A stretch of DNA of 64,000 nt, taken from assembly GCA_965203805.1 (NCBI GenBank), contig OZ241917.1:2688001-2752000 (forward strand). The letters run 5' to 3'. The translations under genes and the position numbers were made by a program. The notes under the pieces were generated by a model. That model had not been told where the DNA came from. It saw nothing but the letters and a program-made list of their open reading frames with translations, and ran no database searches. Positions 10,190 through 55,505 of the stretch are shown one piece after another (position 1 is the first letter of the stretch; every line of letters begins with the position of its first letter). The stretch comes from Candidatus Latescibacterota bacterium. Its GTDB lineage: Bacteria > Latescibacterota > UBA2968 > GCA-2709665.

Positions 10190-10190
10190 G

Positions 10191-12389: not shown

Positions 12390-12404
12390 CGTCAATCGTC
12401 CAGA

Positions 12405-12448
12405 GGCAGCCTGACGGCTTCGCCAGTCTGCGACGATCGGTAAGCGGC
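12405..12448 (-). repeat. Diverged duplicate of the 3' end of the oxidoreductase gene (other copy 14146-14189)
   Basis: 37/44 identity with a 17-bp identical core GTCTGCGACGATCGGTA; reads AAYRSSQTGEAVRLPLDD*. Confidence 0.8.
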
Positions 12449-12549
12449 AGTCATCCAGCGGGGTCAGGGTCGCGCGAAGGTAGAACGGGACCGGCAGGCG
12501 TGTCGCACCGCGAAATACTGCCAGATGCAGTACAATATTCAAATTGAAC

Positions 12550-12578
12550 TTGAATTTTGCACCGATTCTCCTTACCTT
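12550..12578 (+). promoter_or_regulatory. Putative sigma-70 promoter for the ATPase gene
   Basis: TTGAAT-17 bp-TACCTT, followed by AAGGAG RBS before GTG 12617. Confidence 0.4.
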
Positions 12579-12616
12579 GTCCGTAAGGCGCGCCCACTCA
12601 GATAAGGAGCGGAACC

Positions 12617-33869: not shown

Positions 33870-33955
33870 GCGGAAGTGGTGGAATTGGCAGACACGTCAG
33901 ATTTAGGATCTGGTGGGCATTGCCCGTGGGGGTTCGAATCCCCCCTTCCGCACCA
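33870..33955 (+). tRNA. tRNA-Leu (anticodon TAG)
   Basis: Acceptor GCGGAAG/CTTCCGC, D-loop GGAATTGGCAGAC, anticodon TTTAGGA, long variable arm, GGTTCGAATCC, encoded CCA. Confidence 0.97.
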
Positions 33956-39514: not shown

Positions 39515-40342
39515 TCAGGCGGGATCCTGTTCACTGGGCGTTTCGACCGGCTTCGCTTCGCGCTGCGCCATTTGATTGAACCACCACAAACCGGCCACGG
39601 CCCCGACGATACCGCTCACAAACAACCACCAGGGAAGGAACTCTACAACATGCCAATCCTCGATAGGTCGGAATAACTCCATACGCACCGATATCAACGA
39701 CAGAAAATTGTTCAGCGCGTGACCGAACAACGCGGGCAGCAAGGAACCTGTGTGTATGACCCACCACGCAAATACGATACCCAGTATCATAGATACCGGA
39801 AATTGCCAGGGATTCATATGGAGCACGGCGAACAGTAACGCGGACCACAGAATGGCACGCCTCCGGGTACCATGGGCTAACAACCCGCCCAGAATGACGC
39901 CTCTGCAGAGGACCTCCTCGGTAAGCGGCGCTTGAATCGCCAGGACATAAAACGCAAGACCAAATGGTGTTTTACTGCCCATCAAATCAAGAAACACGTC
40001 GAGTATTACTTCGGGGATTGGAATCAGATATTGTACGAAGCTTGCAAGGTTGGATGAGAAAATGCCCAATCCCACGATCGAGACGGAAACGGGTAAGTAC
40101 ATTTTCCACGGAACTGTCTTGAAAAGCAGGATGTCGGACCACGGCCGACGGGATCGACGTTGCGCATATAGCACGATCAGACCAACGGCGGGCAGATTTA
40201 CAATCAATTTCAGGTAATCGAAGATCCGTGTCGCATTGCCCGACGCGACGCCGAGGAAATGAAGCACCAACCCCAATGCGTTCATTGCTACGAAAAGCAG
40301 GACCACCAACCAAACGGATTGCTTCAAATTCGGATAGGCCAT
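39515..40342 (-). CDS. CPBP (type II CAAX/Abi) intramembrane metalloprotease, paralogue 4
   Basis: MAYPNLKQ start; TEEVLCRG, FAVLH, GHALNN. Confidence 0.92.
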   Translation of the reverse strand: MAYPNLKQSVWLVVLLFVAMNALGLVLHFLGVASGNATRIFDYLKLIVNLPAVGLIVLYAQRRSRRPWSDILLFKTVPWKMYLPVSVSIVGLGIFSSNLASFVQYLIPIPEVILDVFLDLMGSKTPFGLAFYVLAIQAPLTEEVLCRGVILGGLLAHGTRRRAILWSALLFAVLHMNPWQFPVSMILGIVFAWWVIHTGSLLPALFGHALNNFLSLISVRMELFRPIEDWHVVEFLPWWLFVSGIVGAVAGLWWFNQMAQREAKPVETPSEQDPA

Positions 40343-40426
40343 TGATTTCCTCCCTTTCAAGCGGTCAGATGTTCGCACATCTGACGATCCGGATTCCCGG
40401 CGAGGGTCGTCGTCGGGGTTCCGTCA

Positions 40427-41254
40427 TCAGAACTGTTCCCGACCTTCCGGCGTCGCGACCTGTGTGCCTCCGCGCATGGACATCCCATTAAACCACCACA
40501 GTCCGATCAGGGCCAGAATCATGCCGGAACCATGCATCCACCAGGGAAGCATCATACCGGCGCTGACACCATCCGTGGATCCGAGGACGCCAAGATACGA
40601 GGCCGTCACGATCAGAAAGTTGTTCAGCGCGTGTCCGACGATGGCGGGCAGCAGGGAGCCGGTTTGTACGACAATCCATGCGAATACGATCCCCAACAGA
40701 AAAGCGGCGGGAAACTGCCATGGATCTATATGGATAATTGCAAACAGCACCGCCGACCAGACGATGGCTCGAGCCGGAGTCCGGTGGGCCAGCAGGCCGC
40801 CAAGTATAACGCCTCTGAAGAGGACTTCCTTTAAAAGCGGCGCCTGAATCACCATGGTATAAAATCTAAGCGGAAAGGGCTTCTCCTTCCTGGCCCGATC
40901 CCCGACCACATCGAGCATTCCTTCGGGCGGGGATATCAGGTGCCGCAGCAGGTTACCCAGGTCCGATCCGACGATTGCCAATCCGACGACGGCCACGACA
41001 AGCGGAATGTACAATTGTAACGAAACGGCCTTGAACGGCAAGATTTCGGACAAGGTCCGATCGGTTCGACGCTTTGCGTAAAGAACCGCCAGGATGAATC
41101 CGGTCAATATCGAGAGCTGGACGACGTATGGATTCTGGTTTAACTCCTGGCCGACAATCATGCCATGGACGGCAAACGGCACGGTGATTGTCAGGCTGAA
41201 CAGGAAAAACAGCACCACGAGCCATACGGATTGCTTCAAATTGGGATAGGCCAT
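40427..41254 (-). CDS. CPBP intramembrane metalloprotease, paralogue 3 (EE motif changed to KE)
   Basis: LLKEVLFRG, FAIIH, GHALNN. Confidence 0.9.
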   Translation of the reverse strand: MAYPNLKQSVWLVVLFFLFSLTITVPFAVHGMIVGQELNQNPYVVQLSILTGFILAVLYAKRRTDRTLSEILPFKAVSLQLYIPLVVAVVGLAIVGSDLGNLLRHLISPPEGMLDVVGDRARKEKPFPLRFYTMVIQAPLLKEVLFRGVILGGLLAHRTPARAIVWSAVLFAIIHIDPWQFPAAFLLGIVFAWIVVQTGSLLPAIVGHALNNFLIVTASYLGVLGSTDGVSAGMMLPWWMHGSGMILALIGLWWFNGMSMRGGTQVATPEGREQF

Positions 41255-41424
41255 CTATTCCCTCCTCTTTTGGACGTCGTTTGCGGCAAATCCATATATC
41301 CGAATACCAGTGCGGTCGGGGAGTGTTCGTTATCGTCCATTGAATCGACATTCACGAACCGGGAACGGTCGGCGGACTTCTCGCTTTCACCATACAGGCA
41401 ATTTCCTTGCAGGGAACGGGTCAT
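41236..41424 (-). CDS. Possible 62-aa small protein
   Basis: AGAGGAG RBS before ATG; lies directly downstream of a sigma-54-like promoter; overlaps the CPBP start. Confidence 0.35.
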   Translation of the reverse strand: MTRSLQGNCLYGESEKSADRSRFVNVDSMDDNEHSPTALVFGYMDLPQTTSKRGGNRWPIPI

Positions 41425-41460
41425 GTCTCCTCTCGCGATCGTGAACGACCCGAATCGACG

Positions 41461-41477
41461 TGCAAGAAACAGGCCAG
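41461..41477 (-). promoter_or_regulatory. Sigma-54 (-24/-12) promoter candidate
   Basis: CTGGCCTGTTTCTTGCA matches TGGC-N7-TTGC spacing. Confidence 0.6.
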
Positions 41478-41537
41478 ACTTGAGAAATATGGCAACTTAT
41501 CGTCTATAACCTGAATAATTCACCTAGACAGGAACTT

Positions 41538-41563
41538 ACATGGATGGACAGGATGAACAGGAT
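41538..41563 (+). repeat. Short tandem ACAGGAT-type repeat
   Basis: ACATGGAT-GGACAGGAT-GAACAGGAT. Confidence 0.45.
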
Positions 41564-42076
41564 AAAGACCCAGAGCAGGACAAATGCTCACGATTCCGGG
41601 CCAAACCGATGGATCCTTACCTCCGTGGACAACGAAACATGCCCCTGACCAATCACTTTCGTAATTCATGAAATGCTGACGCGTGATATTTCGCAGAATC
41701 TATTGAAAAACAACCCGTTATACATCAAGACCAGGGTTTTCGTGAATAATCCGCCGTAAATCGTTTAATTGAAGGATTCCGAATCGAAGGGTGCCCGGAG
41801 GTGTCGCAAAACGCGCCTGACTGCCGCGACGTGTATTCCAAATATGCGCGTGCGGAGGGACATAATTTGCGGTACGTGAAGAGATTTGGTCGGCAATCGA
41901 GGGGGCGTGCAAAAAAGCGATGCATTCTGCATCACGGGACGCGTTCTGCAACGATCGGCGCCGGTCGGAAACCGCTTGGAATCGCCAGGGACCGGGAGAC
42001 ACACAAAAAAAATCCCGCTCCATCCCCTCGCCATTCAGTGATGAACTTTCCGGCGGCACCCCGATTAAAGGGTGCC

Positions 42077-42225
42077 GGGCAGTGTCACCACTCACGCAGC
42101 TTTGAGGATGCGGGAAGGTCCTGCGTATTCGCCGGGAACGTGGGAGCTACCCATGCCCCTTTGAGTCGGCTGTTGTATTCGGCAGGCTACCCGACATACG
42201 GGTACTGCCCGAGTGGTGACAACCC
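42077..42225 (-). ncRNA. Candidate structured rod-like RNA (~150 nt)
   Basis: 11-bp closing stem (42083-93 with 42211-21), nested internal stems, upstream TTGTTT-17-TATATT promoter (42255-42227), downstream GC hairpin (42054-77). Confidence 0.5.
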
Positions 42226-42456
42226 GAATATAGTGTCCGCTATTGAGAAAAACAAGGGGCAAATGAGGTCCGGAATTGGGAAGTCCACCCGTCGGAGGCA
42301 AGGGCGCGCGCCGGTCCCCGGCGTTGAGACGCCGCTGAACGTCGACTACAGATGGACCCCAGCCGGTACGTGAGAGCCGCGCCTTCAGAACGGAAGGATC
42401 GCCACAGGCGAAACACCCCATCAACCGCTTCCACTTCGTGAATGATGAAAGTCCTC

Positions 42457-43260
42457 CTATTCTGATTCCCTGACAGGATAGCAAATGTCCGCCTGTTGCA
42501 TCTCCGTTTGCAGCCAGTTGCTGAACAATGTGTGGCGAATCTCGCTGATGACGCGATCTGTCAGCCTCGCAGGATAGCTTCTCTGCAGCATATACAGTGC
42601 GAAGCCGCCAGGCGCTTTGTCGGGACCGAAGACCTCACCCGGCGCGGCAGCGAAGAGGCGCGCGGCAATGCCCTTCGGCAGATGTTCTCGCCGCAACCGC
42701 CCCCTAAACCCGCCGGCAGGCCGTGTGCGCTCGTCCTGAGAGAATTCGCGGGCTAATGCGCAGAAATCGGCGCCGTCTTCACGTATCTGAAATCGGATTT
42801 CGTCGATGACGCCTCTGTCCTTATGGAAAATCCAGCAGACCTCGGCCTCGTCGAAATCCAGCGTGTGCTGTGCGAAGTAGGGTTCAATCCGTCCCTCCGT
42901 GATTTTTCCGGACATCATGCGCTCCAATCGCCTTACCTGGGCGTCTTCGGCAACGTCACCCAGGGTTATGCCTCGGGACCGGAGCCAGGCTTCCGTGTCT
43001 TCCACGCGTTCCAGGCGATGTCGATACCGCCAGTCGTCGACGTCGCGCTGGATATCCTCAGCCTTCGCGTGGATGCCCTCCCTCTCCGCGAGCTGCCGCA
43101 CCAGCTCTCTTCGAGCGTACTCACCGAGGAATCCGAGGTTGTCTGCAACGCCCAGATGGCGCACAACCTGTTTCAGTGACACGGCGATTCCATTGACCCG
43201 AACCAGCGATAAGGCCCCGGCCTCGTTTGCGGGTTCGTGTTCATCCTGACGGCGCATCAC
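42457..43260 (-). CDS. PpiC/rotamase-like foldase associated with the peptide exporter
   Basis: FCALAREFSQDE..GGFRG..LP; SurA-like helical N-part; ATGA-coupled to HlyD. Confidence 0.82.
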   Translation of the reverse strand: MMRRQDEHEPANEAGALSLVRVNGIAVSLKQVVRHLGVADNLGFLGEYARRELVRQLAEREGIHAKAEDIQRDVDDWRYRHRLERVEDTEAWLRSRGITLGDVAEDAQVRRLERMMSGKITEGRIEPYFAQHTLDFDEAEVCWIFHKDRGVIDEIRFQIREDGADFCALAREFSQDERTRPAGGFRGRLRREHLPKGIAARLFAAAPGEVFGPDKAPGGFALYMLQRSYPARLTDRVISEIRHTLFSNWLQTEMQQADICYPVRESE

Positions 43261-44657
43261 GTCTCGCCCTGGCGCGCGGACGGCGTTGTCGCGGCATCGT
43301 ACGTTGCGGACTCGTACAGCTTTCGCAAAGGACTCAGCAGCATCAGCAGGACCGACTGGCGGTCCGTCATGATCTCCGCCGTGCCCTTCATGCCGAAGAG
43401 GAGCGGCTTTTCCTGTCCTTTCACGGCCATGGTGGTCTCCTCCAATTCAACGACCCCTTTGAATATCGGCCCTACGGTCTCGTCGACGACGGCGTCCGGC
43501 GAGATCTGCTTGAGCAATCCGCGTTTAATTCCGAAGTCCTGGAACGCGAAAGCGTCGTATTTCAATTTGACGATCTGTCCCGGCTTGAGCAGGCCCACGT
43601 CCTTGTTCAAAACAGTCAGTTCGGCGACGATCGGCGCGGACGCCGGCGCCAGAGTCGCCAGAGCCTGTCCTTTGTTGATGACATGTCCGAGCGTATTCAC
43701 CTCCACGCGGGTTACAATTCCGGCCTCCGGGGCCAGAATCAGGTCCGATTCGGCATCGAGCTGGCGATCGACGCGTTTGCGCGCCTGATCCAGCCTCAGC
43801 CGCGCGGTCTTGTATGCGTGCCTGATCTGCGCGGCCTCGCGGCCGTGAGCGATGCGAGCCTCGAGAATCCGGCGCTTGAGGTCCTGCACCGCCGTTTCGT
43901 TCTTGTAGATTTCCGACATGCGTCCGGGAAGCTGCGCAAGGGCGGTCAGATATCTGACGCGCGCGCGATTGATCTCCGCCCTGCTGATCAGTTGGCGTTC
44001 GTACAGCATCTTCTGCTGCAGATAGTCTTGTTTCAAATGATCGATTTCGGCCTGACGAAAGCCGATTTGCGCCTGCAATTCCGCATCCGACGGGCCCGCT
44101 CCCCCTTCCTCGAGGGCGCCCACGTCGGCGTGGTAATCCTGCAAGGCATTCTGGTGGGCGACCATGAACCGCTCCAGAACGGACAGCCGTTTATTCAGCG
44201 AAGCGATCGTTTCCCGGTTCAATTCAGTCCTCTGGGGCAATACATGGTGATATTCGTACTCGGCCTTCTGAAACGCCATTTCCGCTTGTTCGAGTTCACG
44301 CAGGTCTCCCCAGGTTTCCCACGATTTGAGCTTGAACAGCAATTGGCCTTCTTCGATGTGGTCGCCTTCCGTAATACCGATGTATTCGATTTCACCGCCG
44401 CGACGGGCCTGCAACGTCTTCACTTTTCCGAGCGGTACGAGCCTGAACGGCGCTGACGCGACCACGTCCACCTTGCCCCACCACGCCCACACGACCGCGA
44501 TGCCGACAAACAGGAGCACGATATATAACAACGCCCGGCCCCAAAACGGTCGGAGGGACCCGATAAACGCGCGCATGTCTTCGGCCGCGTCGTCCCGGGG
44601 CCCGACAACGACAGTCGGCGCGGTACCGGGTGAGGATTTCAGCGGGTGTCCCGTCAC
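43257..44657 (-). CDS. HlyD-family membrane fusion protein
   Basis: N-terminal TM, EGDHIEEGQLL, long coiled coil, DAFAFQDFG, GMKGTAEI. Confidence 0.93.
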   Translation of the reverse strand: MTGHPLKSSPGTAPTVVVGPRDDAAEDMRAFIGSLRPFWGRALLYIVLLFVGIAVVWAWWGKVDVVASAPFRLVPLGKVKTLQARRGGEIEYIGITEGDHIEEGQLLFKLKSWETWGDLRELEQAEMAFQKAEYEYHHVLPQRTELNRETIASLNKRLSVLERFMVAHQNALQDYHADVGALEEGGAGPSDAELQAQIGFRQAEIDHLKQDYLQQKMLYERQLISRAEINRARVRYLTALAQLPGRMSEIYKNETAVQDLKRRILEARIAHGREAAQIRHAYKTARLRLDQARKRVDRQLDAESDLILAPEAGIVTRVEVNTLGHVINKGQALATLAPASAPIVAELTVLNKDVGLLKPGQIVKLKYDAFAFQDFGIKRGLLKQISPDAVVDETVGPIFKGVVELEETTMAVKGQEKPLLFGMKGTAEIMTDRQSVLLMLLSPLRKLYESATYDAATTPSARQGET

Positions 44658-44684
44658 GGGTACGGCTCCTCGCAGGCAGGTGGT

Positions 44685-47600
44685 TCAAGCCATCTGCAAC
44701 TGCTGGCTGGACATGTGGTAGTAAAGGCCGCGGCGATCCATGAGTTCTTCATGGGTTCCCGTGTCGACGATGTGGCCCTTTTCAAGCACGACAATCACGT
44801 CGGCATCCCGCACGGTACTCAAACGGTGAGCAATGATCATTGCGGTGCGGTTTTCGAGGAAAAGGTCCAGGTTTGCCTGGATCGCGCCTTCGGAGTCCGT
44901 ATCCAGTGCGTTTGTGGCTTCGTCGAAGATCAGGATTCCCGGATCACGGTACAGCGCTCTCGCGATCGCAATCCGTTGCCGCTGTCCGCCGGACAATCCG
45001 ATCCCCTGCTCGCCGACTTTTGTCTCATATCCCAGGGGCATCTCGGTCACAAAGTCCTGTACACAGGCCATTCTCGCCACCTCAAGGACCCGGTCCATAT
45101 CGGCGTCGGCTTCTCCAACCGCGATGTTCTCCGCAATCGTGCCGCTGAAAAGAAACGGATCCTGCATCACCATGCCCACCTGGCGCCGAAGCCAGTGCGG
45201 GTCCAGGTCGCGCACGTCCATCCCATCCAGCACCACCCTCCCTTCCGTGGGATCGAACAGGCGCGGCACCAGCTTCACCAGCGTGGTCTTGCCCGCCCCG
45301 CTCCGCCCGACAATGGCGACTTTGCGCCCCGGTTCGAGAATCAGGCTGATGTTGTTCAACACGTAAGGTTCGTCGGAGCCCACGCCGTATCTGAAAAACA
45401 CATCGTCGAATATAACGCGGCCTTCCACCCGTTTCAGTCTCATGCCGTGCCCGCGCTGGCGCGCATCCTCCATCTCTGCGTCGTACACGTCATTCAGCCT
45501 GTCCAGGGCGACGCGGGCTTCCTGCACCTCCGGCCAGACGCCGATCAACCCCATTACAGGTCCCATAACGTTGCCGATGAGCGCGTTGAACGCCATCAAC
45601 TGCCCCACGGACAGCTCCCCTTCCATAACCAGGGATGCGCCGTACCACAGGATCACGGTTGAACTCAGCAGATTGATCATACTGCCCCCCGCCCCGAACA
45701 GCATTTCCATTTTCAAACGCTTGAAACCGATCTGGATTTCTTTCGTGAACTTCCCTTCCCATTGCCACCTGGTGACGCGTTCGACGGCCTCGGCCTTCAC
45801 CACGTCGACGCCGTGCAATGAGTCGATCAGGACGGACGACTGCTCCGCGCGGGCAAGAAAGGCGCGCTGGCTGAACGACTTCAATATCGGGGTATAAATC
45901 AGCGTGAGACCCACGGAAAGCGGCACGAAGATCAACATCACGAGCGTCAGCTCCCAATTGTAATAGAACATCAGTCCCAGATAGACGAACAACATGATGA
46001 AGTCCAGTATTGCGGACACGGTCGTGTCGGTAAACAGGCGCTGGATCGTGGCGTTCTCCTTGAACCGCGTGGTCAAATCGCCGGTGCGCCTCAGCGCGAA
46101 GAATCGCATGGAAAGACCCAGCAGGTGCCGGTAGAACCTGCACAACATCGTAAGGCTGAGGCGCGCGCTGATATATCCGATGAGATATGCGCGCAAGGTC
46201 GACGTCCCCATCTGGAACAGCGCCACAACGACCATACCCGCCAGCATCAGGTTCAGCAGATCCCTGTCGTGATGCACAAGTACCTGGTCCACGATCGTCT
46301 GTGTGAATACCGGGGAGGCCAGTCCGAACAGACTGAGCACCAGAGACGCCAGCAACACCTCGATCAGGATGGGTGTATAAGGCTTGATCAACGGGAAGAA
46401 CCGCTTGAAGGAAGACCTGGAGGGTTCATTCTCGGACACCTGATCCGTGTATTCCAGCAGGAGGGCCATATTGGTCCAGCTCTTCTCGAATTCCGCACGG
46501 GACAACGTCCGGAGGCCCAGGGCGGGATCCGCGATCCTCACGTCTTTTCTGGTGATTTCGTACAGCACCACGAAATGGTTGCCTTCCCAGTGCAGGATCG
46601 CCGGCAGTCCGGTCCGCATCAGCGCTTCGTATCCCGTACGCACGCCGCGCGTGACGAACCCGAGCGTCTCCGCCGCTTCGGCCAGCGCCGCCATCGACGT
46701 GCCGTCGCGGGAAACGTTGCACATATCGCGCAGCCGGTTCAGCCCGATCGGCATCTTGTAATACTTGCAGATCATCCCCAGACACGCCGCCCCGCAATCG
46801 GACTGATCATGCTGTTTCAGGAATGGATAGCGGAACGAAGACGGCGCGCCGTTTCTTCCATCATCCGATTCACCGCTCCCGGTTCCGTCTGCCGGTCCGT
46901 TCGCGTCTGCGACGTTCTTCTTTTCCGGCGATCGGGCTTCGACCCTGGCGCGCACTTCGGAAGGACGGGTCCCGAGGGACGGTGACACGTTCGAATTCTC
47001 TCCTGCATGCAACTGACGCACCAGGGACGTGGCGGACCCGAACGCGGCAGCCGCGTCGCCAAGGTCACGAAAGTCGCTATCGGCGAGGTAAAACAGAACA
47101 CTATCCCGGGTACTGCGGACAACCGGGGGCCCGCCTTCGGAACGATCGGTTTCCTCGAAGAAATCACCCGCGACCAGACGACGGGCGACGCCATCCCCGG
47201 ACATCATCTCCAGCTCGCCGCTTCCCACCACGCAGAACCGCCCTCGCGACTGACCGGGACCGGAAACCGTCGCTCCCGTCGCAATCTCCTCACGCTTCAT
47301 ACGACGGAACAACCTCCGCATCGCATCCCCGGAAACGGACCCTTTCAGAAACCTCGTGAAATCCCGATATGGGATATTCGCCACCTGATCCTGGAGATGT
47401 GCTTTCAGTTCGGGTTCTTTTTTCGTCACGTTGACGAAGTCACCCCGCGACACACGCAAAACCTCGGAATCCTCCACCGCGCGCACCGATGCCCGATGTC
47501 CGCGGCCGGTCAGCAGCGCCCCCTCGCCGAAATGGTCGCCGGGATACAGGAAACCCAGGGTTTCAGGATGGCCGTCCGCATTTCGCCCGATCACTCGCAA

Positions 47601-47726
47601 CCGACCCGATCGCACGATGTAGAACGCATCGCCGGGTCTCCCCTGATCGAAGACGACCGACCCGAAGGGAAATCCGACCGGCTCTGACCGAATCGACATT
47701 TGAGAAATGAGGGATAGGACGTCCAT
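44685..47726 (-). CDS. Peptidase-containing ABC transporter (cNMP-binding domains + C39 peptidase + TMD + NBD)
   Basis: GDHFGEGALL..RASVRA; QHDQSDCGAACL, HWEGNHFVV, IADPA; GRSGAGKT, LSGGQRQR, ILIFDEAT. Confidence 0.95.
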   Translation of the reverse strand: MDVLSLISQMSIRSEPVGFPFGSVVFDQGRPGDAFYIVRSGRLRVIGRNADGHPETLGFLYPGDHFGEGALLTGRGHRASVRAVEDSEVLRVSRGDFVNVTKKEPELKAHLQDQVANIPYRDFTRFLKGSVSGDAMRRLFRRMKREEIATGATVSGPGQSRGRFCVVGSGELEMMSGDGVARRLVAGDFFEETDRSEGGPPVVRSTRDSVLFYLADSDFRDLGDAAAAFGSATSLVRQLHAGENSNVSPSLGTRPSEVRARVEARSPEKKNVADANGPADGTGSGESDDGRNGAPSSFRYPFLKQHDQSDCGAACLGMICKYYKMPIGLNRLRDMCNVSRDGTSMAALAEAAETLGFVTRGVRTGYEALMRTGLPAILHWEGNHFVVLYEITRKDVRIADPALGLRTLSRAEFEKSWTNMALLLEYTDQVSENEPSRSSFKRFFPLIKPYTPILIEVLLASLVLSLFGLASPVFTQTIVDQVLVHHDRDLLNLMLAGMVVVALFQMGTSTLRAYLIGYISARLSLTMLCRFYRHLLGLSMRFFALRRTGDLTTRFKENATIQRLFTDTTVSAILDFIMLFVYLGLMFYYNWELTLVMLIFVPLSVGLTLIYTPILKSFSQRAFLARAEQSSVLIDSLHGVDVVKAEAVERVTRWQWEGKFTKEIQIGFKRLKMEMLFGAGGSMINLLSSTVILWYGASLVMEGELSVGQLMAFNALIGNVMGPVMGLIGVWPEVQEARVALDRLNDVYDAEMEDARQRGHGMRLKRVEGRVIFDDVFFRYGVGSDEPYVLNNISLILEPGRKVAIVGRSGAGKTTLVKLVPRLFDPTEGRVVLDGMDVRDLDPHWLRRQVGMVMQDPFLFSGTIAENIAVGEADADMDRVLEVARMACVQDFVTEMPLGYETKVGEQGIGLSGGQRQRIAIARALYRDPGILIFDEATNALDTDSEGAIQANLDLFLENRTAMIIAHRLSTVRDADVIVVLEKGHIVDTGTHEELMDRRGLYYHMSSQQLQMA

Positions 47727-47818
47727 GGATTGATTCCCGCGATTCGCAGCGTTGTTCGAATCTCCGGATGTAGACCGGTGTCCAGCAGGCTACTGCACGT
47801 TGAATTTCGATCCCATAT

Positions 47819-47834
47819 ATACTATATATAGTAT
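47819..47834. promoter_or_regulatory. Perfect 16-bp AT palindrome ATACTATATATAGTAT upstream of the PCAT gene
   Basis: Self-complementary, in otherwise GC-rich intergenic DNA ~95 bp before the ATG. Confidence 0.5.
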
Positions 47835-47891
47835 GTCAGTGTGCGTGATCCGCTGTCTCGTGACGCAGCGATACGTCCCCAACCGGCGCGG

Positions 47892-48767
47892 CTACTTCGG
47901 AGGCAGTGAGCGCCCCACGAGTCCCGGCGTTGCATCCGTCCCGGGATCTTCAGGCGGGACCTCGCCCTCAGAAACGGGCTCAGCGGGCTTCGCAACCCGG
48001 GAAAACCACCACAGTCCCACAGCAGCGAGCGCCACCCCGGCCGCACTGAACCACCAGGGGTTGAACGCTACGTCGTTGAGGTCACCCGAAATGTCTATAT
48101 CCGATATATCAGAATGCAGAATCGTCACGGCGATTAGGTTGTTCAATGCGTGTCCGAACAGGGCGGGCAACAAGGATCCTGTACGGATAACCCACCACGC
48201 CCAGACCATGCCTGATATGAAGATAGGCACAAATGTCCACGGGTCCAGATGCAACATTCCAAACAAGACTGCTGACAATAGAACCGCGCAGACCCTTGAA
48301 TGATGTGCCAGCAGACCACTCAGGATAATGCCTCTGAATAGCAACTCTTCGCCCAGAGGCGCGATGACGGCTGCCCCGAAGACAGCCGACAGAAAAGACG
48401 TCTTGCGCAGGATCTCCGAACGATAGATTTCCTGCATCCACTCGGGAACGGGAGCAATCCGAATCGCGACTTTCATCAATTCGGTATCGAGCATCCCCAG
48501 GCCGACGACTGATATTGCAACGCAGGGCCATATCCGCCAATCAAACCGCGTGTTGAATAGAGGACGTATATATCGCCAGTCCAGATCCGTGCGCCGGTAA
48601 ACATAACCCAGAAGAATGACGAAATTCACCAGCAACAGAATTCCCATCAGGAAATCGTCTTCAAACTTCCACCGGTCGACAACGAGCACCGCCACCGCCA
48701 GGCCAACCTGAATCAACAGGAACAGAAACAGTAACCAGATCGTCTGTTTCAGGTTCGGATACGCCAT
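47892..48767 (-). CDS. CPBP intramembrane metalloprotease, paralogue 2
   Basis: MAYPNLKQ; GEELLFRG, FGMLH, GHALNN. Confidence 0.92.
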   Translation of the reverse strand: MAYPNLKQTIWLLFLFLLIQVGLAVAVLVVDRWKFEDDFLMGILLLVNFVILLGYVYRRTDLDWRYIRPLFNTRFDWRIWPCVAISVVGLGMLDTELMKVAIRIAPVPEWMQEIYRSEILRKTSFLSAVFGAAVIAPLGEELLFRGIILSGLLAHHSRVCAVLLSAVLFGMLHLDPWTFVPIFISGMVWAWWVIRTGSLLPALFGHALNNLIAVTILHSDISDIDISGDLNDVAFNPWWFSAAGVALAAVGLWWFSRVAKPAEPVSEGEVPPEDPGTDATPGLVGRSLPPK

Positions 48768-48779
48768 ATGGATAACTTA

Positions 48780-49649
48780 TTATGTTGAGGATGAAGAACC
48801 CGGATCGTACCGCATTGGTTCGTGGGGTTCATCAACGCGTATTGTCGGCGCCTCTCTGGAGGACAAAACGTAGAATCCGGCTTCCGACGAATGATCCTGA
48901 ATCCAACTGTCATTGTCATATCTGCGAGCCTTTGAATAAACCATGACATCTCCCGCGCCTCCGGCAAACGTGGCACAAAGTAGCAAGACCGACCAGACCG
49001 CCGGATCAAACGACAGAATTAAAACCGCGGCGGGTGTTGTTACGATCAACGGGAGTAGCGCGAATGCCCGGTATGCGCTCAGTGTCATCGGTTTGTCAGC
49101 GTGGCAGTAAAAGGCCGTTAATCGCAAGTTGATTCCAAAGTGCAGCGAACTAAATGGAATTTTCCCCCACGCCATCGCGGCAATACCGTGAAGTGCTTCG
49201 TGAATCACAAACAAGGCGATTAGTCCTCCAATCAATTTCCATAGATCGACGAGAGGAAATCGCAGCTCTATCGCCCATGGAAGCAAGGCATCTGCCCCGA
49301 TGACAGACATTCCCGAAATCCAGAACATCAAAAAACACAAACTGTAAATCTCGTGTTTTTCAAGAATCACTTCAGTGACGTTAGAATCCTGGCCGGGTTC
49401 AATTCCGCCTGGATTCGACACACATAACCCGCCGACTGCGGTCACCATTCCCGCTGCGGTTTCATAGAGCTTTTTTCGAAAGATTATAAACGAGAATGCC
49501 TGAACAACCAGGACCGCCATCAGGATCACAAGATCGAATTGAATGACGTACCTGAGAATCAGCAAAGCAGGCGCAACGGAAAATAGCGCATACGATATGG
49601 CCGCGAGAATCCAACGACTCCACGTTCCCCCTGGGAGGACATCCTTCAT
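48780..49649 (-). CDS. DUF3267-like membrane zinc metalloprotease with an extra N-terminal TM pair
   Basis: IHEALHG, AFYCH, ALLPL, GGAGD, WIQDH. Confidence 0.82.
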   Translation of the reverse strand: MKDVLPGGTWSRWILAAISYALFSVAPALLILRYVIQFDLVILMAVLVVQAFSFIIFRKKLYETAAGMVTAVGGLCVSNPGGIEPGQDSNVTEVILEKHEIYSLCFLMFWISGMSVIGADALLPWAIELRFPLVDLWKLIGGLIALFVIHEALHGIAAMAWGKIPFSSLHFGINLRLTAFYCHADKPMTLSAYRAFALLPLIVTTPAAVLILSFDPAVWSVLLLCATFAGGAGDVMVYSKARRYDNDSWIQDHSSEAGFYVLSSREAPTIRVDEPHEPMRYDPGSSSST

Positions 49650-49748
49650 CCGGAACCTCCGATGCTGTGTCTATTGGTCTTTCTTGTGAATCAATGGACT
49701 ATTGCCTGATTTGTTCGTGTCACAAACTTAGAACTCTGCGATCTGCGG

Positions 49749-50603
49749 CTAGTCGCCGTCTGCTGGCGAATCTGCCGTCTCAGTCACGAGGGGGTTGGCT
49801 GATTGCGTCTTCTTCGATATCTGGCGAAACCACCAGAGTCCTAGTGTAGCCAATAACACGCCAGCGCCTGTCCACCACCAGGGATTGAAAAACACAACAT
49901 TGAAGTCTTCTGCTACCTCGAGATATGGTATTTCGAAGTGCAACGTCGTGACGCCGATGAGATTGTTCAATGCGTGGCCGAAAAGCGCAGGCCACAAGGA
50001 TCCAGTCCGGAAATACCACCAGGCGAATACGAGCCCGTACAATAGGGCCGGTGGAAATTGCCAGGGATTGAGATGACCCACGCCAAACAGAAACGCCGAC
50101 CAGAAAATCGCCCTGTTCCTGGTATAGTGTGCCAGCAAACCGGCAAATATCGCGCCTCTGTATAGCAACTCTTCAACGATCGGGGCGACAAACACGGCCC
50201 GGAACACGGCTGAGGAGTAAGATGTTTTGCGCCCGAACTCCGATTTAAAAATGTCCTGGATTAAATCGGGCATAGGAATCAACCGAATTACCGCTTTGTC
50301 CATTTCAAGTAGAACCATCCCGATACCAAAGATCGAAATTGCCACACAAGGCCACACACGCCAATCAAAGTTTGTGTTCAGCAATTGTGATGTGTCTCTC
50401 CAGGTTCGATCCGCGCGGCGGAATACGTAGCGCAAGTAGAGAAAGTAAACCACCAGAGTCGATATGCCTGTCAACAGGTTTTCGTGTCGAGAACTTTCGC
50501 CAAGGACGGTCTGTACAACGTAGATGATGAGTTCCAAAACCGACTCTGTTATCCAGAATAGAACCACTAACCAGATGGACTGCCGAATGTTCGGATACGT
50601 CAT
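49749..50603 (-). CDS. CPBP intramembrane metalloprotease, paralogue 1
   Basis: MTYPNIRQ; VEELLYRG, FGVGH, GHALNN. Confidence 0.92.
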   Translation of the reverse strand: MTYPNIRQSIWLVVLFWITESVLELIIYVVQTVLGESSRHENLLTGISTLVVYFLYLRYVFRRADRTWRDTSQLLNTNFDWRVWPCVAISIFGIGMVLLEMDKAVIRLIPMPDLIQDIFKSEFGRKTSYSSAVFRAVFVAPIVEELLYRGAIFAGLLAHYTRNRAIFWSAFLFGVGHLNPWQFPPALLYGLVFAWWYFRTGSLWPALFGHALNNLIGVTTLHFEIPYLEVAEDFNVVFFNPWWWTGAGVLLATLGLWWFRQISKKTQSANPLVTETADSPADGD

Positions 50604-50910
50604 TCGAATATCCTATCGTAAGGCGTCGCGGACCGTGGTTTCACGTGGGGCCGAGATCTTTAGTTGGATTACGCCTAAAGAAGAAGTAGACGCAAGATAA
50701 TGATCTGGAAAGGTCACTCACACTGCAATCTAAACGTGCCTTCCGGCGCTCTATCCGGATTCCTGCATCGGCTTCCTCGGCAAATTACCAGAGTGAATGA
50801 GGCGTGATCTCGCCGTTCCTCCAGCCCTTTTGCAACCTTAGAGAATGCGAGCGATTGAATGCACTTGGGCCCAAACTCTCCGTGGGCCCTCCCCTCCTCG
50901 CATGGTTGAC

Positions 50911-51516
50911 TCACTCGACTGGGGTCTCGCCCTCCGGCCAAATGGTACAACCAGGTTCGGATGGATGATCTCTGACCCAGAGATTCTTGTCGTAGTCCTG
51001 GACTTTGAAATACATCAATACGTCCCCTGAACACCCTGAGAACGCCACACTGAAGAGTAATAGTGTCCAGATAGCTGGATCCAAAAGGATCACAAGACCG
51101 GTAACGAATGTAGTAACTAAAAGAGGCAGGAGCAGCAAGACACGAAAATTACCCATCCTCATCCGGCTCGAAAAATGGCAATAAGGGGCCAGCCATTTCC
51201 ATTTGAATCCGAAACGAACCGAACTGTATGGGACCTTGCCCCACTTCAGTGCGGCAAAGGCGTGTAGCGCCTCATGAAAGACGACGATGAGAATTGTACA
51301 AGCCAGAAACATCCAGCGGTCGCGATTGAGGAAGCGGAAATCGATTTTCCATAAATTGACTATATCGCCTACTAAAGCAAGAGTAAACGCGAAACAGAAC
51401 ATTACTAACGAAAAAACAACCATATAGACTTTGTCAACGCGAAACTCAAGAATCTCGTGTCCGATCTTATCTCGATCGAGTAATCGCCCCGAATCGGCTC
51501 CTTCATTCATCGGCAT
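50911..51516 (-). CDS. DUF3267-like membrane zinc metalloprotease
   Basis: FHEALHA, APYCH, GCSGD, WVRDHP; GAGG RBS before ATG 51516. Confidence 0.85.
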   Translation of the reverse strand: MPMNEGADSGRLLDRDKIGHEILEFRVDKVYMVVFSLVMFCFAFTLALVGDIVNLWKIDFRFLNRDRWMFLACTILIVVFHEALHAFAALKWGKVPYSSVRFGFKWKWLAPYCHFSSRMRMGNFRVLLLLPLLVTTFVTGLVILLDPAIWTLLLFSVAFSGCSGDVLMYFKVQDYDKNLWVRDHPSEPGCTIWPEGETPVE

Positions 51517-51652
51517 ACCATCCTCACGCTTCCGCGTTCGAATCAAGATTGCAGTGCCTACCAGGTCTCGTGATTGTGACCCCTGGATGGAGAAAATCGG
51601 AAGTCGCAAAGCAGAGTAGCACTTGGGTCTTATCGAATAGCAACGGCATCAG

Positions 51653-51690
51653 GACCGGTGCAGGCTCCCCCATGCAAACCTGCACCGGTC
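51653..51690 (-). terminator. Strong hairpin after the precursor genes
   Basis: 12-bp perfect stem GACCGGTGCAGG/CCTGCACCGGTC; no U-tract, so possibly a stabiliser or attenuator. Confidence 0.5.
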
Positions 51691-51731
51691 GCGTCAGACA
51701 CTGCCTACGGAATCTTTCCGATCTGTCGCTC

Positions 51732-52025
51732 TCAGAAATTCGATAGTCCGTCGGCCATGTCGGATATGAAGCCACCGGCAACGAAATCTACGGCGTCGTT
51801 AGCCCTATCCCAATACCACTGAGCCGCTTCCGCAGTACCTGTGGGATTTGTAATTGCACTGACTGTGATTCCAACCAGTACGCCTAGTACAAATGGAGCT
51901 AAACCTCCGGAAATTTCTGCCACTGATTCCCTAGCCAAATCCTCCTGCAGAATTGGTAAGGTAGAAAATGCTGACAACACTTGGCCAGCATCTGTCGCCA
52001 CTGGATTCGACAATACATGGGTCAT
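51732..52025 (-). CDS. Double-glycine leader peptide precursor 3 (41-aa leader, 56-aa core)
   Basis: AGGAGG RBS; LPILQEDLARESVAEISGG|LAPFVLGVLVG... Confidence 0.8.
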   Translation of the reverse strand: MTHVLSNPVATDAGQVLSAFSTLPILQEDLARESVAEISGGLAPFVLGVLVGITVSAITNPTGTAEAAQWYWDRANDAVDFVAGGFISDMADGLSNF

Positions 52026-52454
52026 TTTATCCTCCTGAAGAGTAAAACGTTATTGCTGATTTGCAAACAAGTGGCTTGAATCTCGCGTTACGAAAACGGT
52101 GACTATTCCTGACGGTTACCGGGTTCGAGAATCGTGCTGTTCCTCTCGTCGGGATGTCAGGTCCGGTGCTCCTTCGATAGCCATGGCGGTCGATCGGGGT
52201 CTGATTATCGAAGGTCCATCGGACGCCAATGTAACACGCACCGTCACTTTATCACGCAGTTTATTCGTTCACTGGCGTGAGGCGCCGGCAAGTCCCGTCT
52301 CCCTACACTAAAGGGAACTTCGTTCATTCACTGTTGGGTTGGATCGCGGAAGATTCCGCGTTGACTTCCCGGAGTCTGCTGAGAAGCCCACTGCATCAGT
52401 AGTCGAGATTGGCAGGATGGATCACTTTCCGCCTGACAAACCCCGCACCGAGTT

Positions 52455-52655
52455 TCAGTCGCCGAAATAATCGGCGATGGCTTCTGCAATTTTCATGCCA
52501 ATCCATCTTGACATGAAACGCGGCCCCAAAGGTGGCACACCAATTCCACCCGATGCATTCGCCATCTCACGCCGCACAAGATTGGTTTCCCGGCCTGGAA
52601 GTTGGGCGCAGGTCGCGACGGCTAGCGCGGGCTGCAACTGAATTCGATCTGTCAT
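52455..52655 (-). CDS. Double-glycine leader peptide precursor 2 (37-aa leader, 29-aa core)
   Basis: GGAG RBS; LPGRETNLVRREMANASGG|IGVPPLGPRFMSRWIGMKIAEAIADYFGD. Confidence 0.72.
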   Translation of the reverse strand: MTDRIQLQPALAVATCAQLPGRETNLVRREMANASGGIGVPPLGPRFMSRWIGMKIAEAIADYFGD

Positions 52656-52736
52656 TTCTCCACGTCCTTTCTGTATTGTTTCTGGCACGAACACGTGAGT
52701 TTTCAATCCAGACTTAACCTGACTGCTTCAACTCCA

Positions 52737-52940
52737 CTACAGTGTACGGCTCGACCTGTCCGGCTCCGGCAAGGTTACGCCGAATATTTCAGCGACCCAA
52801 TTTCTGAGAAGGCGGCCCAGCCCGGCGTCGCCGCCGGAAATTCGTGCGGTCTGCCCTGCGGTCAGGTCTTCCGTCTGAACCGGCAGACGGGCCGGAACTT
52901 CGTGAGACGCCGCAGGGCTCGATGCGATTCTTCTGTTCAT
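52737..52940 (-). CDS. Double-glycine leader peptide precursor 1 (37-aa leader, 30-aa core)
   Basis: AAGGAGGTG RBS before ATG 52940, hidden inside a longer 220-aa ORF call; LPVQTEDLTAGQTARISGG|DAGLGRLLRNWVAEIFG... Confidence 0.75.
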   Translation of the reverse strand: MNRRIASSPAASHEVPARLPVQTEDLTAGQTARISGGDAGLGRLLRNWVAEIFGVTLPEPDRSSRTL

Positions 52941-53166
52941 GTCTTTCACCTCCTTTCGTCGGCATCCTCGCGACGTCCGGACAATCGTGTTGCCCCTCCG
53001 ATAACCGGATTCGCGTCGCGCAGATGCATTGATGTCCGAAGCGTCTGTAACCCTTCTTCCTCCCGCGGCATACGCCCCGCGGGAGGCGGCTTCGGCTTTG
53101 AACCAAAGGGTGCGTTTTGCCACGGAACGCGAGCGCGGTCCGCAACGCTGTCGATGCATTGGAACC

Positions 53167-53181
53167 GCAAGGACTGTGCCA
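53167..53181 (-). promoter_or_regulatory. Sigma-54 promoter candidate for the precursor operon
   Basis: TGGCACAGTCCTTGC matches TGGCAC-N5-TTGC. Confidence 0.65.
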
Positions 53182-53352
53182 CTCGCGACACCCCCCGGCA
53201 TAACTGACTGGCCTGCAAATGCGAATCGATTTGAAGACTTCCGGGAGGCCGATGTCTCTCGGCGAATCGTTGAAATATGTGTTCCATTCTGCGTCACTCG
53301 GGTGAAACCATGTTGCCTTTGGCGCCTCAGAGACCCTGTCTGGAACCGGCAC

Positions 53353-53384
53353 AAAAAAACACCGGCGACATAGGTCACCGGTGT
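53353..53384 (-). terminator. Intrinsic terminator
   Basis: ACACCGGTGAC-CTAT-GTCGCCGGTGT followed by a T run on the minus strand. Confidence 0.6.
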
Positions 53385-54435: not shown

Positions 54436-54903
54436 GTGGAGGTCCATACAGTGAGAAATGTCGATATTGCGGTGACCGGCGCCGATGGAACACTCCAGCT
54501 CGTCCTGGAAATCAAGAACGTGCCGGGTGCAACTGCCGAGTGGGTCATCCTGATGCGTCGCAACTTGCTTGCCCATTCGTTTCTGCCTCCGGCGCCATTC
54601 TTCCTGCTTGTGCTCCCGGACTTTTTGTACCTCTGGACAGGGTCCTCTACGTTAGATGGTTTGGCAAAACCTGACTATAAAATCGAAACCTCCGAAATGC
54701 TCGCGCCATATCTTAAATATAACCAATCCCTTATTGAACTAAGTCGATATGGGCTGGAAATGCTTACGGTGTCGTGGCTGGAAGATATACTTCATGCTGA
54801 CCTGAGACGAGACTCGGTTGACGGCAATCTCAGATGGATTTTTGACTCGGGGTTATATAGAGCAATTACAAACGGTTCCCTGGAACTCGAAGCGATGACA
54901 TGA
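54436..54903 (+). CDS. Hypothetical protein with a PD-(D/E)XK-like motif
   Basis: VDIAV...LVLEIK; ATGA-coupled to the PIN gene. Confidence 0.65.
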   Translation: MEVHTVRNVDIAVTGADGTLQLVLEIKNVPGATAEWVILMRRNLLAHSFLPPAPFFLLVLPDFLYLWTGSSTLDGLAKPDYKIETSEMLAPYLKYNQSLIELSRYGLEMLTVSWLEDILHADLRRDSVDGNLRWIFDSGLYRAITNGSLELEAMT

Positions 54904-55505
54904 TTGTATACCTTGAGTCAAATTTCGTACTTGAACTGGCATTTCTTCAAGCCGAGCATGAACATTGCTCGGCACTTTTGCGTCTATCGGAATCGGGAGA
55001 GATTCGCCTGGTTTTACCGGCATTCAGCATCGGTGAACCGTACGAAACGTGGGTGCGCCGCTCGAAGCGAAGACGAGACGTCCACGAGGAGTTGACTACC
55101 GCAATTCGAGAACTTTCCCGGTCAAGTCCTTACGAACGGGTAACCGACCATTTCCACGAACTCACTGGAATACTGATCCGAAGTGGTGAGGAGGAGAAGC
55201 GCCGTTTGGATGAAACCCTGGAAGACATCCTGAGAACCGTTGAAGTAATACCGATTGGATTGAGCATTATCAGAGCGGCCATAAATTACCAAAGGAAGCT
55301 AACCCTTTCGCCGCAAGATTCGATAGTTTACGCTTCGGTTCTCGATCACCTGAATCCAGAATCATCCGAGCCAGGCTGTTTCATAACCACGAACTCAAGA
55401 GATTTCGCCAATCCGGACATCGAAACCGAACTTACTGACCACAACTGCCGGCTGCTGACAAAATTCGCCGACGGCGTGGGGTATATCCGAAGTCAGTTGT
55501 CGTGA
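54900..55505 (+). CDS. PIN-domain protein (DUF4935-like)
   Basis: IVYLESNFV, SIGE, PQDSIVYAS, FITTNSRDF. Confidence 0.82.
   Translation: MIVYLESNFVLELAFLQAEHEHCSALLRLSESGEIRLVLPAFSIGEPYETWVRRSKRRRDVHEELTTAIRELSRSSPYERVTDHFHELTGILIRSGEEEKRRLDETLEDILRTVEVIPIGLSIIRAAINYQRKLTLSPQDSIVYASVLDHLNPESSEPGCFITTNSRDFANPDIETELTDHNCRLLTKFADGVGYIRSQLS

Follow-up and report, generated by a model that had tools for sequence, protein, structure and literature searches.

In cyanobacteria, a long C39 transporter with a cyclic-nucleotide extension, an HlyD protein and a rotamase together mark the cluster groups I, II and VI (PMC3140520, Wang 2011), and group I was found, according to the passages of that survey at hand, in all but one of the surveyed genomes, with few precursors recognised. 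TMcins, bacteriocins whose mature peptide contains a membrane helix, are reported, in the available part of PMC12328743, from Bacillota and Actinomycetota only. Within the membrane, TmcP cuts off their leader of 45 amino acids (aa); TmcP is one of the DUF3267 proteins, which belong to the S2P clan, and the hallmark of DUF3267/TmcP proteins is an HExxH motif with a distal Asp and Pro (PMC13712780, in the sections available). Here, we analysed a stretch of 64,000 nucleotides (nt) from Candidatus Latescibacterota bacterium (assembly GCA_965203805.1, contig OZ241917.1, positions 2,688,001 to 2,752,000), hereafter called the window, in which a gene cluster combines components of both kinds. We are highly confident that this cluster is a double-glycine peptide export locus. 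Its sequence is best read as that of a chromosomal locus for several unmodified, ribosomally made peptides with double-glycine leaders, which would most likely be antagonistic, and these peptides are probably of a class II bacteriocin or microcin-like type.

The cluster occupies positions 39515-52940 of the window on the minus strand, where thirteen elements all point in the same direction. Beginning with the peptide genes, they are:

52737-52940, minus strand: P1, a precursor of 67 aa with a 37-aa leader ending in ISGG and a 30-aa, amphipathic-looking core (open reading frame, ORF, and motif scan)
52455-52655, minus strand: P2, a precursor of 66 aa with a 37-aa leader ending in ASGG and a 29-aa core with an acidic C-terminus (ORF and motif scan)
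51732-52025, minus strand: P3, a precursor of 97 aa with a 41-aa leader ending in ISGG, an uncharged hydrophobic stretch and an acidic tail (ORF and motif scan)
50911-51516, minus strand: DUFa, a DUF3267 protein of 201 aa, putative S2P-clan intramembrane zinc protease (PF11667, 61.5 bits)
49749-50603, minus strand: CPBPa, a CPBP/Rce1-like intramembrane protease of 284 aa (PF02517, 76.1 bits)
48780-49649, minus strand: DUFb, a DUF3267 protein of 289 aa whose N-terminus carries an additional hydrophobic extension of about 80 aa (PF11667, 56.6 bits)
47892-48767, minus strand: CPBPb, 291 aa (PF02517, 76.5 bits)
44685-47726, minus strand: PCAT, 1013 aa, with two stretches binding cyclic nucleotides (cNMP), a C39 peptidase, an ABC membrane domain and an ATPase (Pfam)
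43257-44657, minus strand: HlyD-family periplasmic adaptor, 466 aa (PF13437, 49 bits, and PF16576)
42457-43260, minus strand: PpiC/rotamase-like accessory protein, 267 aa, with no hydrophobic N-terminus (PF00639, 41.3 bits)
42005-42256, minus strand: structured RNA of about 220 nt within a conserved, roughly 250-nt block downstream of the PpiC-like gene and upstream of the trailing CPBP pair
40427-41254, minus strand: CPBPc, 275 aa (PF02517, 74.2 bits)
39515-40342, minus strand: CPBPd, 275 aa counted from ATG (PF02517, 67.6 bits)

Every Pfam domain match of the cluster proteins exceeded its gathering score (22.4 for PF02517 and 27.1 for PF11667). The exporter genes are contiguous, the start of the PpiC-like gene overlapping the stop of hlyD, and a gap of 1.2 kb separates the PpiC-like gene from the trailing CPBP pair. 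A preliminary description of the window, made from its letters and predicted ORFs, had given the same gene order on a single strand, which is borne out by the Pfam and ORF evidence, and had also reported the lack of any tailoring gene. In agreement with this, no YcaO, LanM, radical SAM or other tailoring enzyme was found among the cluster proteins and the six flanking ORFs (35787-55980), to which the scan was confined.

Firmicute class II (two-peptide) loci, such as those for plantaricin and blp, likewise combine unmodified double-glycine peptides with a PCAT and tandem CPBP genes, and they too are mosaic, with swapped peptide and CPBP alleles and truncated remnants. The present locus differs from them in its diderm host, its HlyD adaptor, an unlinked outer-membrane factor and the cNMP-binding domains of its PCAT; moreover, it contains DUF3267 genes and no quorum-sensing two-component system, its leaders are about twice as long, and its cores are neutral or acidic. 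The class II microcins of Enterobacterales are also unmodified, often anionic double-glycine peptides exported from a diderm cell by a PCAT, an HlyD-type adaptor and TolC, but their loci carry a small dedicated immunity protein and have no CPBP or DUF3267 arrays, no cNMP-binding domain and no rotamase gene.

With the cyanobacterial groups I, II and VI, the locus shares the long C39 transporter with its CAP_ED extension, HlyD, a rotamase-domain protein (called 'SurA' there) and double-glycine-leader substrates (PMC3140520, passages at hand), so that the cyanobacterial style ascribed to the exporter in the preliminary description is upheld. It belongs to another phylum; the terms 'CAAX' and 'immunity' are absent from the text of PMC3140520, and DUF3267 does not occur in its available passages. 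Group I averages 0.35 recognised precursors according to the same passages, whereas three clear ones are adjacent to the exporter here. The TMcin cluster resembles the locus in that a DUF3267 protein (HExxH...D) adjoins a precursor in which a leader of about 40-45 aa precedes a membrane helix and the C-terminal part is short, and in that most products are membrane proteins (PMC12328743 and PMC13712780, available sections). These sections describe a type V ABC transporter (TmcBC), an escort protein (TmcE) and a Cys pair, with no double-glycine leader or C39 domain; here, in contrast, a double-glycine leader is present, a PCAT stands in place of TmcBC, and the P3 core has no Cys. Finally, a CPBP gene also lies within the angicin bacteriocin locus of Streptococcus anginosus, but this gene, silX, is single, belongs to a Gram-positive host and, in the accessible part of PMC9298176, is needed for the processing or export of a signal peptide, with no role in immunity. 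We did not find the present cluster described in a literature search beyond which most subscription journals and supplements lay. The preliminary description had called the system undescribed-looking, which holds for the combination and not for its parts: all components belong to known families, DUF3267 was characterised in TmcP in 2025-26, and the locus is lineage-wide. As far as our searches reach, the combination, the phylum and the PCAT-linked pair of a DUF3267 protein and a membrane-helix peptide are new.

The PCAT is encoded by the only C39 gene of the genome and matched PF03412, PF00664 and PF00005 with 136.6, 181.8 and 116.6 bits, respectively, and the cyclic-nucleotide-binding family PF00027 with 95.4 bits in two stretches. 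Its C39 domain aligned over its whole length with 6mpz, the double-glycine protease domain of an AMS/PCAT transporter, and with PCAT1 (4ry2); the Cys, His and Asp were in register, as the preliminary description had held, and in the C21A mutant chain 7n87 an Ala occupies the position aligned to the PCAT Cys, marking the catalytic site. RTX exporters carry an inactive C39-like domain that lacks the Cys. By its sequence, the domain encoded here is instead a peptidase domain of the active type. All three exporter proteins form a subfamily of their own and fell below the curated NCBIfam cut-offs: the PCAT scored 511.1 against 523.85 for TIGR01193, 589.2 against 853.3 for TIGR03796 and 625.7 against 725.55 for TIGR01846, HlyD reached 205.7 bits with TIGR01843 (cut-off 208.65), and the PpiC-like protein 89.5 bits with TIGR04500, a putative peptide maturation system protein (cut-off 180). 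The outer-membrane channel could come from one of seven TolC-like genes located at other sites of the genome.

Scanning the 5.87-Mb genome in six frames for the double-glycine-leader motif returned 92 small ORFs, and three of them, P1, P2 and P3, are grouped on one strand within 1.2 kb, immediately upstream of the sole C39 gene, which excludes chance clustering; the three precursors with such leaders in the preliminary description were thus recovered beside an intact C39 PCAT. Purine-rich ribosome sites precede each of them (AAGGAGGTG, a Shine-Dalgarno sequence, before P1, GGAG before P2 and AGGAGG before P3). A profile built from relatives of P3 also detected the leaders of P1 and P2 in this genome, indicating that the three share one leader family (LP...SGG, about 37-41 aa) attached to unrelated cores. 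The cores measure 30, 29 and 56 aa, contain no Cys and have conserved prolines just past the cut site; by eye, that of P3 opens with a hydrophobic stretch free of charges and closes with an acidic tail. The frames remain open in orthologues, and third codon positions vary most in all five precursor groups, with differences at codon positions 1/2/3 of 310/227/528 in one P1 type, 982/963/1741 in P2, and 347/250/487, 500/429/764 and 247/201/363 in the remaining groups. In sequence comparison, the three small ORFs thus behave as coding genes. Of the public sequencing runs sought for signs of their expression, four from two studies were listed, none of them recorded as RNA. Cleavage of their leaders by the C39 domain is suggested by the adjacency of the genes and by the conservation of the leaders.

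A tblastn search found P1 in 13 of the 14 clusters that have an intact exporter within the genus, the exception being the second cluster of one genome (G045; genomes and extracted loci are referred to below by our G and L numbers where needed), and also in a disrupted locus (G054, L004). Two unrelated core types, beginning DAGLG and AIRWR, occur in P1, and both cut across the variants of the N-terminal half of the leader; therefore, while the leader was inherited vertically, cores have been exchanged behind it. Related clusters hold orthologues of P2 together with a second paralogue, and a profile search with P3 retrieved 24 representatives from 1.84 billion proteins. With a narrower P3-family alignment as the query, no distant P3 relatives were found in metagenome contigs, and a tblastn search with the precursors of all relatives revealed no further precursor remnant in the cluster of the window (best E-value 0.004). 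At E <= 1, neither the three precursors P1, P2 and P3 nor two relatives matched a model for NHLP or Nif11 leaders. In the ESM Atlas, one neighbour cluster of P3 had Bacteriocin_IIc in 12% of its members at a score below the 0.9 mark, and is a lead only.

The locus is lineage-wide and modular, conserved across two genera, and not a one-off. It was syntenic in all 14 other genomes of the genus, which answers the synteny check proposed in the preliminary description. When one genome per species was considered, 16 loci had a close relative of DUFa (40-77% identity), labelled Latescibacterota (12), Gemmatimonadota (3) and 'uncultured bacterium' (1); each of these 16 lay in the same cluster, 14 with an intact PCAT and 14 with a PpiC-like gene within the fetched range. 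Among 168 genomes of the phylum, the PpiC-like gene was present in 45 and the leader family in 41, in the same genera, and each of the two was found in 14/14 other genomes of the genus and in 21/21 of a second genus; DUF3267 was detected in 41 of the 168. Exporter and leader family, which are coupled in both occurrence and position, were found together in about 40 genomes. These figures bear on another explanation, namely that the small ORFs are not substrates, either because the PCAT exports a large protein encoded elsewhere or because the ORFs are untranslated. The best NCBIfam score of the PCAT, that for TIGR01846, is to an HlyB-type family of type I secretion systems, as this explanation would have it; however, the catalytic Cys that the C39-like domain of RTX exporters lacks is kept, the leader genes lie inside the clusters and share the genomes of the exporter, and the codon-position pattern, the open frames and the ribosome sites are conserved. 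We consider it very improbable.

Full clusters were compared across the genus (14 genomes besides that of the window) and in five genomes of the second genus. Intact exporters of the genus were 79-93% (PCAT), 78-91% (HlyD) and 71-86% (PpiC-like) identical to that of the window, the divergent second cluster of G045 being excluded, and the same GtrA-like neighbour was present in 13 of 15 genomes; the ranges fetched for G050 and for the disrupted G054 showed no match to it. By contrast with this exporter, the peptide and protease genes turn over in a modular way. A cluster may hold from one precursor (G056) to four or more, zero to three DUF3267 genes and two to five CPBP genes, and truncated copies of 15-53% of the full gene occur. 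The 57 full-length CPBPs fell into 22 types and the 24 DUF3267 proteins into 11 (68% identity), with a mix of types that differs in almost every genome; G091 carries tandem pairs of a peptide gene and a CPBP gene in alternation. The pneumococcal blp locus is a mosaic of bacteriocin and immunity genes, and the turnover seen here resembles that of such mosaic loci.

Three related loci deserve separate mention. G090 has a satellite locus (C2, about 2021272-2024669), about 117 kb away from its closest PpiC-like gene, in which a CPBP gene follows four ORFs of the leader family. In G054 (C1, about 4359886-4378862; L116, and L004:13192-14219), the exporter is mostly lost: PCAT fragments and the C-terminal 59% of the PpiC-like protein are left, separated by about 13 kb of other DNA, and peptide, DUF3267 and CPBP genes persist. 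In G081 (L010:11684-15994, L128), the PCAT was recovered in three tblastn pieces with about 1.2 kb inserted before its last 235 residues, which may be an insertion element or an intron.

The array of intramembrane proteases is expanded, as had been said of it: four of the six Rce1-like genes of the genome and both of its DUF3267 genes lie inside the cluster. The preliminary description had taken all six for metalloproteases, which fits the two DUF3267 proteins, the only ones with HExxH, and not the four CPBPs, whose closest families are named glutamic-type intramembrane proteases in NCBIfam. The CPBPs fell below the cut-offs of those families, and their best match, to the CPBP half of an ABC-permease/CPBP fusion family, was far below; proteins of about 760 aa containing this CPBP domain occur in neighbouring genera. 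The motifs that define CPBPs are EExxxR, FxxxH and HxxxN. They are all kept in CPBPa, CPBPb and CPBPd, and CPBPc has Lys in place of the first Glu (KE for EE). Kjos et al. are said to have shown in 2010 that CPBP/Abi proteins act in bacteriocin self-immunity. Judging by the architecture of the locus, the four CPBPs may be immunity proteins, a proposition that we regard as evenly balanced.

DUFa and DUFb are 36% identical and both retain HEALH, and H81, E82, H85, P131, P147 and D165 were invariant in 23 DUF3267 homologues. In the AlphaFold2 (AF2) model of DUFa (pLDDT 85.5), a small sheet accompanies four long helices. Foldseek returned no PDB match to this model at E <= 0.001, and VIA-align placed S2P-family chains at ranks 1, 3, 5 and 9 with Z scores of 5.1-6.8, middling by the standard of the tool: SpoIVFB at Z 6.8 (root-mean-square deviation 3.4, 108 residues aligned), two RseP orthologues at Z 6.4 and 5.5, and mjS2P of M. 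jannaschii at Z 5.1. A search of 5.8 billion clustered proteins yielded 25 relatives of DUFa at E <= 0.001, of which the few named came from Latescibacteria, Gemmatimonadetes and Planctomycetota bins. In the two genera, 39 of 42 DUF3267 matches had a PpiC-like gene on their own strand no more than 12 kb downstream; of the other three, one was 17 kb away in the disrupted cluster and two were on contigs without a PpiC match. The link between PCAT and DUF3267 is specific to this clade, since none of 63 distant DUF3267 loci (mostly Bacteroidota, 23-36% identity) had a match to the C39 part of the PCAT nearby; three of the 63 matched its ABC part only. In seven of these distant loci, all from Chryseobacterium (L026, L037, L040, L051, L053, L056 and L059; about 10000-12660), a CPBP gene stands about 1.8 kb downstream without a PCAT, which may be a single inherited arrangement.

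DUFa starts 216 nt past the stop of P3, and this pairing recurs. Relatives of P3 form two classes. The first, which includes P3 itself, has the hydrophobic stretch, conserves a W-Y-x-D-R segment and terminates in ...ADGLSN, and the second has a Cys-rich C-terminal tail. Phylum-wide, in three genera, 11 of the 12 full-length P3-type genes of the first class (E < 1e-30) are followed directly by a DUF3267 gene, and the twelfth comes from an 89%-complete genome in 650 contigs. Within the genus, moreover, the DUFa type tracks the P3 subtype, with 63-77% identity to DUFa where the subtype is that of the window and 46-48% otherwise, whereas CPBPa, encoded by the next gene, follows a different pattern and recombines freely. 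A complex prediction for DUFa and P3 scored 0.02 against a mark of 0.32 and is uninformative either way. Second-class precursors were seen at the P3 position of relatives (L111:12798-13079(-), L122:6701-6970(+), L123:6679-6960(+), L124:6647-6910(+) and L119:13577-13852(-)); they combine the same leader family with a long hydrophobic core rich in Ala and Val and a basic, Cys-rich C-terminal tail, which hints at modification or a metal site. A DUFb-type DUF3267 gene comes directly after them in four of the five cases and after two CPBP genes in G058.

Because TmcP is a leader peptidase, a processing role for DUF3267 is a serious alternative to immunity. In its broadest form, all six intramembrane proteases would be biosynthetic and would form a diderm, TMcin-like pathway, immunity being provided elsewhere: P3, and perhaps P1 and P2, would sit in the inner membrane, the C39 domain would remove the leader, DUF3267 and CPBP proteins would cut or escort the peptide, and the PCAT would extract it. 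The precursor cut by TmcP consists of a leader, a helix and a C-terminal part (PMC13712780, sections available), and P3 has the same build with a leader of 41 aa instead of 45. The constancy of the P3-DUF3267 neighbourhood and the tracking of the P3 subtype by DUFa while CPBPa recombines are what such a pathway would lead one to expect, some members of the P3 family lack the second Gly, and SilX is a CPBP that acts in peptide processing (PMC9298176, part available). However, the intact C39 domain and the conserved SGG already explain leader removal, and the Cys pair conserved in TMcins is missing from the P3 core. Extra, orphan or truncated proteases without an adjacent peptide are also common (G046, G048 and G052, for instance, have DUFa in a second copy, and fragments of CPBP genes occur), which would be odd for essential maturases, and the number of DUF3267 and CPBP genes varies over the ranges given above with similar peptide sets. 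We thus hold a wholly biosynthetic array to be unlikely, if worth keeping in mind.

Double-glycine leaders and PCATs also serve pheromones such as ComC, and P1 to P3 could accordingly be signals whose core diversity defines pherotypes, with proteases that process or degrade them and a cNMP that ties export to the state of the cell. Core types that swap behind conserved leaders, as in pherotype systems, and cores that are not cationic would suit this explanation. The nearest language-model neighbours of P1 in the ESM Atlas were ComC-family clusters, at 0.85, and a lantibiotic leader, all below the 0.9 mark and thus leads only. CPBPs are known in signal-peptide maturation from SilX (PMC9298176, part available) and from the MroQ family named in NCBIfam. 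On the other hand, neither the cluster nor the flanking ORFs scanned contained a gene for a histidine kinase, a response regulator or another receptor, and the several unrelated cores, the tandem peptide-CPBP pairs and the decaying array members fit toxin-immunity turnover better. A signalling role therefore appears improbable, more so than wholesale maturation by the proteases. Since the analysis draws on sequence alone, neither of these two explanations is separable from the antagonistic one. The preliminary description had proposed an unmodified multi-peptide bacteriocin, microcin or signalling system with proteases for immunity or maturation; the export locus stands, and the choices between killing and signalling and between protection and maturation are not settled by sequence.

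Several observations weigh against unmodified antagonistic peptides with protease-based immunity. The cores, read by eye, are neutral to acidic, and typical class II bacteriocins are cationic; class II microcins are anionic. No precursor matched a curated bacteriocin family of NCBIfam at its cut-off, the best being P3 with TIGR03949 (class IIb lactobin A/cerein 7B; 14.9 bits, cut-off 21.5), a model that gave no match to P1 or P2 at E <= 1. In 5 of the 19 rows picked for the P3-family alignment, E, K or T replaces the second Gly, which is unusual at C39 sites. Neither a small dedicated immunity gene nor a receptor gene was recognised at the locus, and no simple one-to-one link was seen between the P1 core type and the trailing CPBP type. 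High-scoring members of the CPBP subfamily of the window came almost exclusively from exporter-bearing genomes (exclusively so above 260 bits), so that the orphan immunity genes expected in non-producers were not seen in this sample. The only characterised DUF3267 protein is biosynthetic, and SilX, from a streptococcal bacteriocin locus, acts in signal-peptide processing and not in immunity (PMC9298176, part available). Lastly, the co-occurrence counts overstate the independence of the cases and the functional coupling, because the genomes are kin and the genes are adjacent and co-inherited.

If the peptides are antagonistic, as we favour, the locus would work as follows. The cytoplasmic C39 domain would cut the precursors after SGG, and the ABC transporter, HlyD and one of the unlinked TolC-like outer-membrane factors would export the cores from the diderm cell, with a cyclic nucleotide gating export through the two N-terminal cNMP-binding domains. 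The PpiC-like protein may be a dedicated accessory for cores with prolines near the cut site. The four CPBPs would protect the producer from its own peptides, in the manner of the Abi/CPBP proteins of Firmicute class II loci, and the DUF3267 protein beside P3 would act on P3 in the membrane, either completing its processing, as TmcP does, or destroying re-entering peptide.

The structured RNA lies in the gap before the trailing CPBP pair. Its block was 87-93% identical in 13 related clusters with flanks that could not be aligned, opens with a promoter-like TTGTTT-N17-TATATT and closes with a T-run terminator, and appears non-coding in that all six tblastx frames score alike. Four further copies in the genome are 72-83% identical (L130:4187-4356(+), L131:4099-4261(+), L132:4083-4250(-) and L133:4134-4298(-)). 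With these paralogues, 13 of 48 predicted pairs had changed on both sides against 4.9 +/- 1.7 in shuffles, none of 500 reaching this value, and 97.7% of the cells were paired against at most 48% when the partners were slid. Rfam held no family matching the cluster RNA at gathering score; a match to sRNA-Xcc1 (28 bits, gathering score 53) was treated as chance, as it was not repeated on the four paralogues. A covariance model found full-length copies in 62 of 151 genomes of the phylum, with 1-13 per genome. In the 24 copies examined outside the clusters, the RNA mostly lies within a few dozen bases upstream of a ribosome site, and the next ORF usually begins with what looks, by eye, like a signal peptide, a lipoprotein signal or a membrane helix; Pfam domains in 14 likely downstream ORFs were WD40 (2), LRR (1) and DUF1232 (1), with none in 10. 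In three related clusters, the terminator of the RNA stands about 180 nt before the first trailing CPBP gene. The RNA is thus a candidate for a new cis-regulatory class; it is probably the leader of the trailing CPBP genes and possibly a cis-acting one, maybe a riboswitch, that controls their operon. Near one paralogue and an IS1595-family transposase gene, group II intron domains were also seen (L130:5649-6407(+), corresponding to G000:C1, about 5624648-5625406; RF02003, 102 bits, and RF00029, 46.9 bits).

A bolder reading would join these elements into a diderm, PCAT-coupled form of membrane-localised synthesis, in which P3 is cut by the C39 domain and then by the S2P-like DUF3267 protein and a CPBP partner, while a CPBP immunity operon stands under a riboswitch-like RNA. 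The P3 product would then form pores after its extraction from the membrane, or else be an acidic C-terminal peptide that is released, and across the phylum the same RNA class would precede genes for exported proteins. Taken as a whole, this chain of proposals is doubtful.

The flanks of the cluster are unrelated to it, with a divergent GtrA-like gene, a PIN-domain gene and a cupin upstream and a DegT-family aminotransferase and a propeller-like protein downstream. G+C content is 0.50-0.53 over the peptide and protease parts (40001-42000 and 48001-52000) against about 0.59-0.60 over the exporter genes, and is 0.60-0.63 in much of the window. One further element marks the upstream border:

53359-53384, minus strand: terminator-like hairpin of 11 pairs with a T run, between the divergent GtrA-like gene and P1

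Nucleotide conservation of the region upstream of P1 among relatives starts exactly at this hairpin. The preliminary description had the system extend over 39515-53384, of which the first coordinate is right; position 53384 is not a gene start and falls in the hairpin, within a spurious frame of 220 aa, and P1 starts at 52940. Farther upstream (54436-55505, plus strand), an ORF of 155 aa without a Pfam match overlaps the start of the PIN_12-domain gene by 4 nt, an arrangement with the look of a toxin-antitoxin pair. The only Rfam match of the window at gathering score was a tRNA gene (33870-33952, plus strand).

The cyanobacterial exporter trio is widespread, yet few of its substrates have been recognised (PMC3140520, passages at hand), and here clear substrates adjoin it; because the trio sits beside them, cleavage, export and cNMP gating are directly testable. 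The pairing of DUF3267 with a membrane-helix precursor would carry the logic of TMcins outside Gram-positive bacteria and join it to a PCAT. We know of no biochemical demonstration that intramembrane proteases confer peptide-specific immunity, and the 22 CPBP and 11 DUF3267 types in about 20 clusters are a natural experiment on that question. As the phylum is known here from metagenome-assembled genomes only, these peptides offer a handle on how its members compete.

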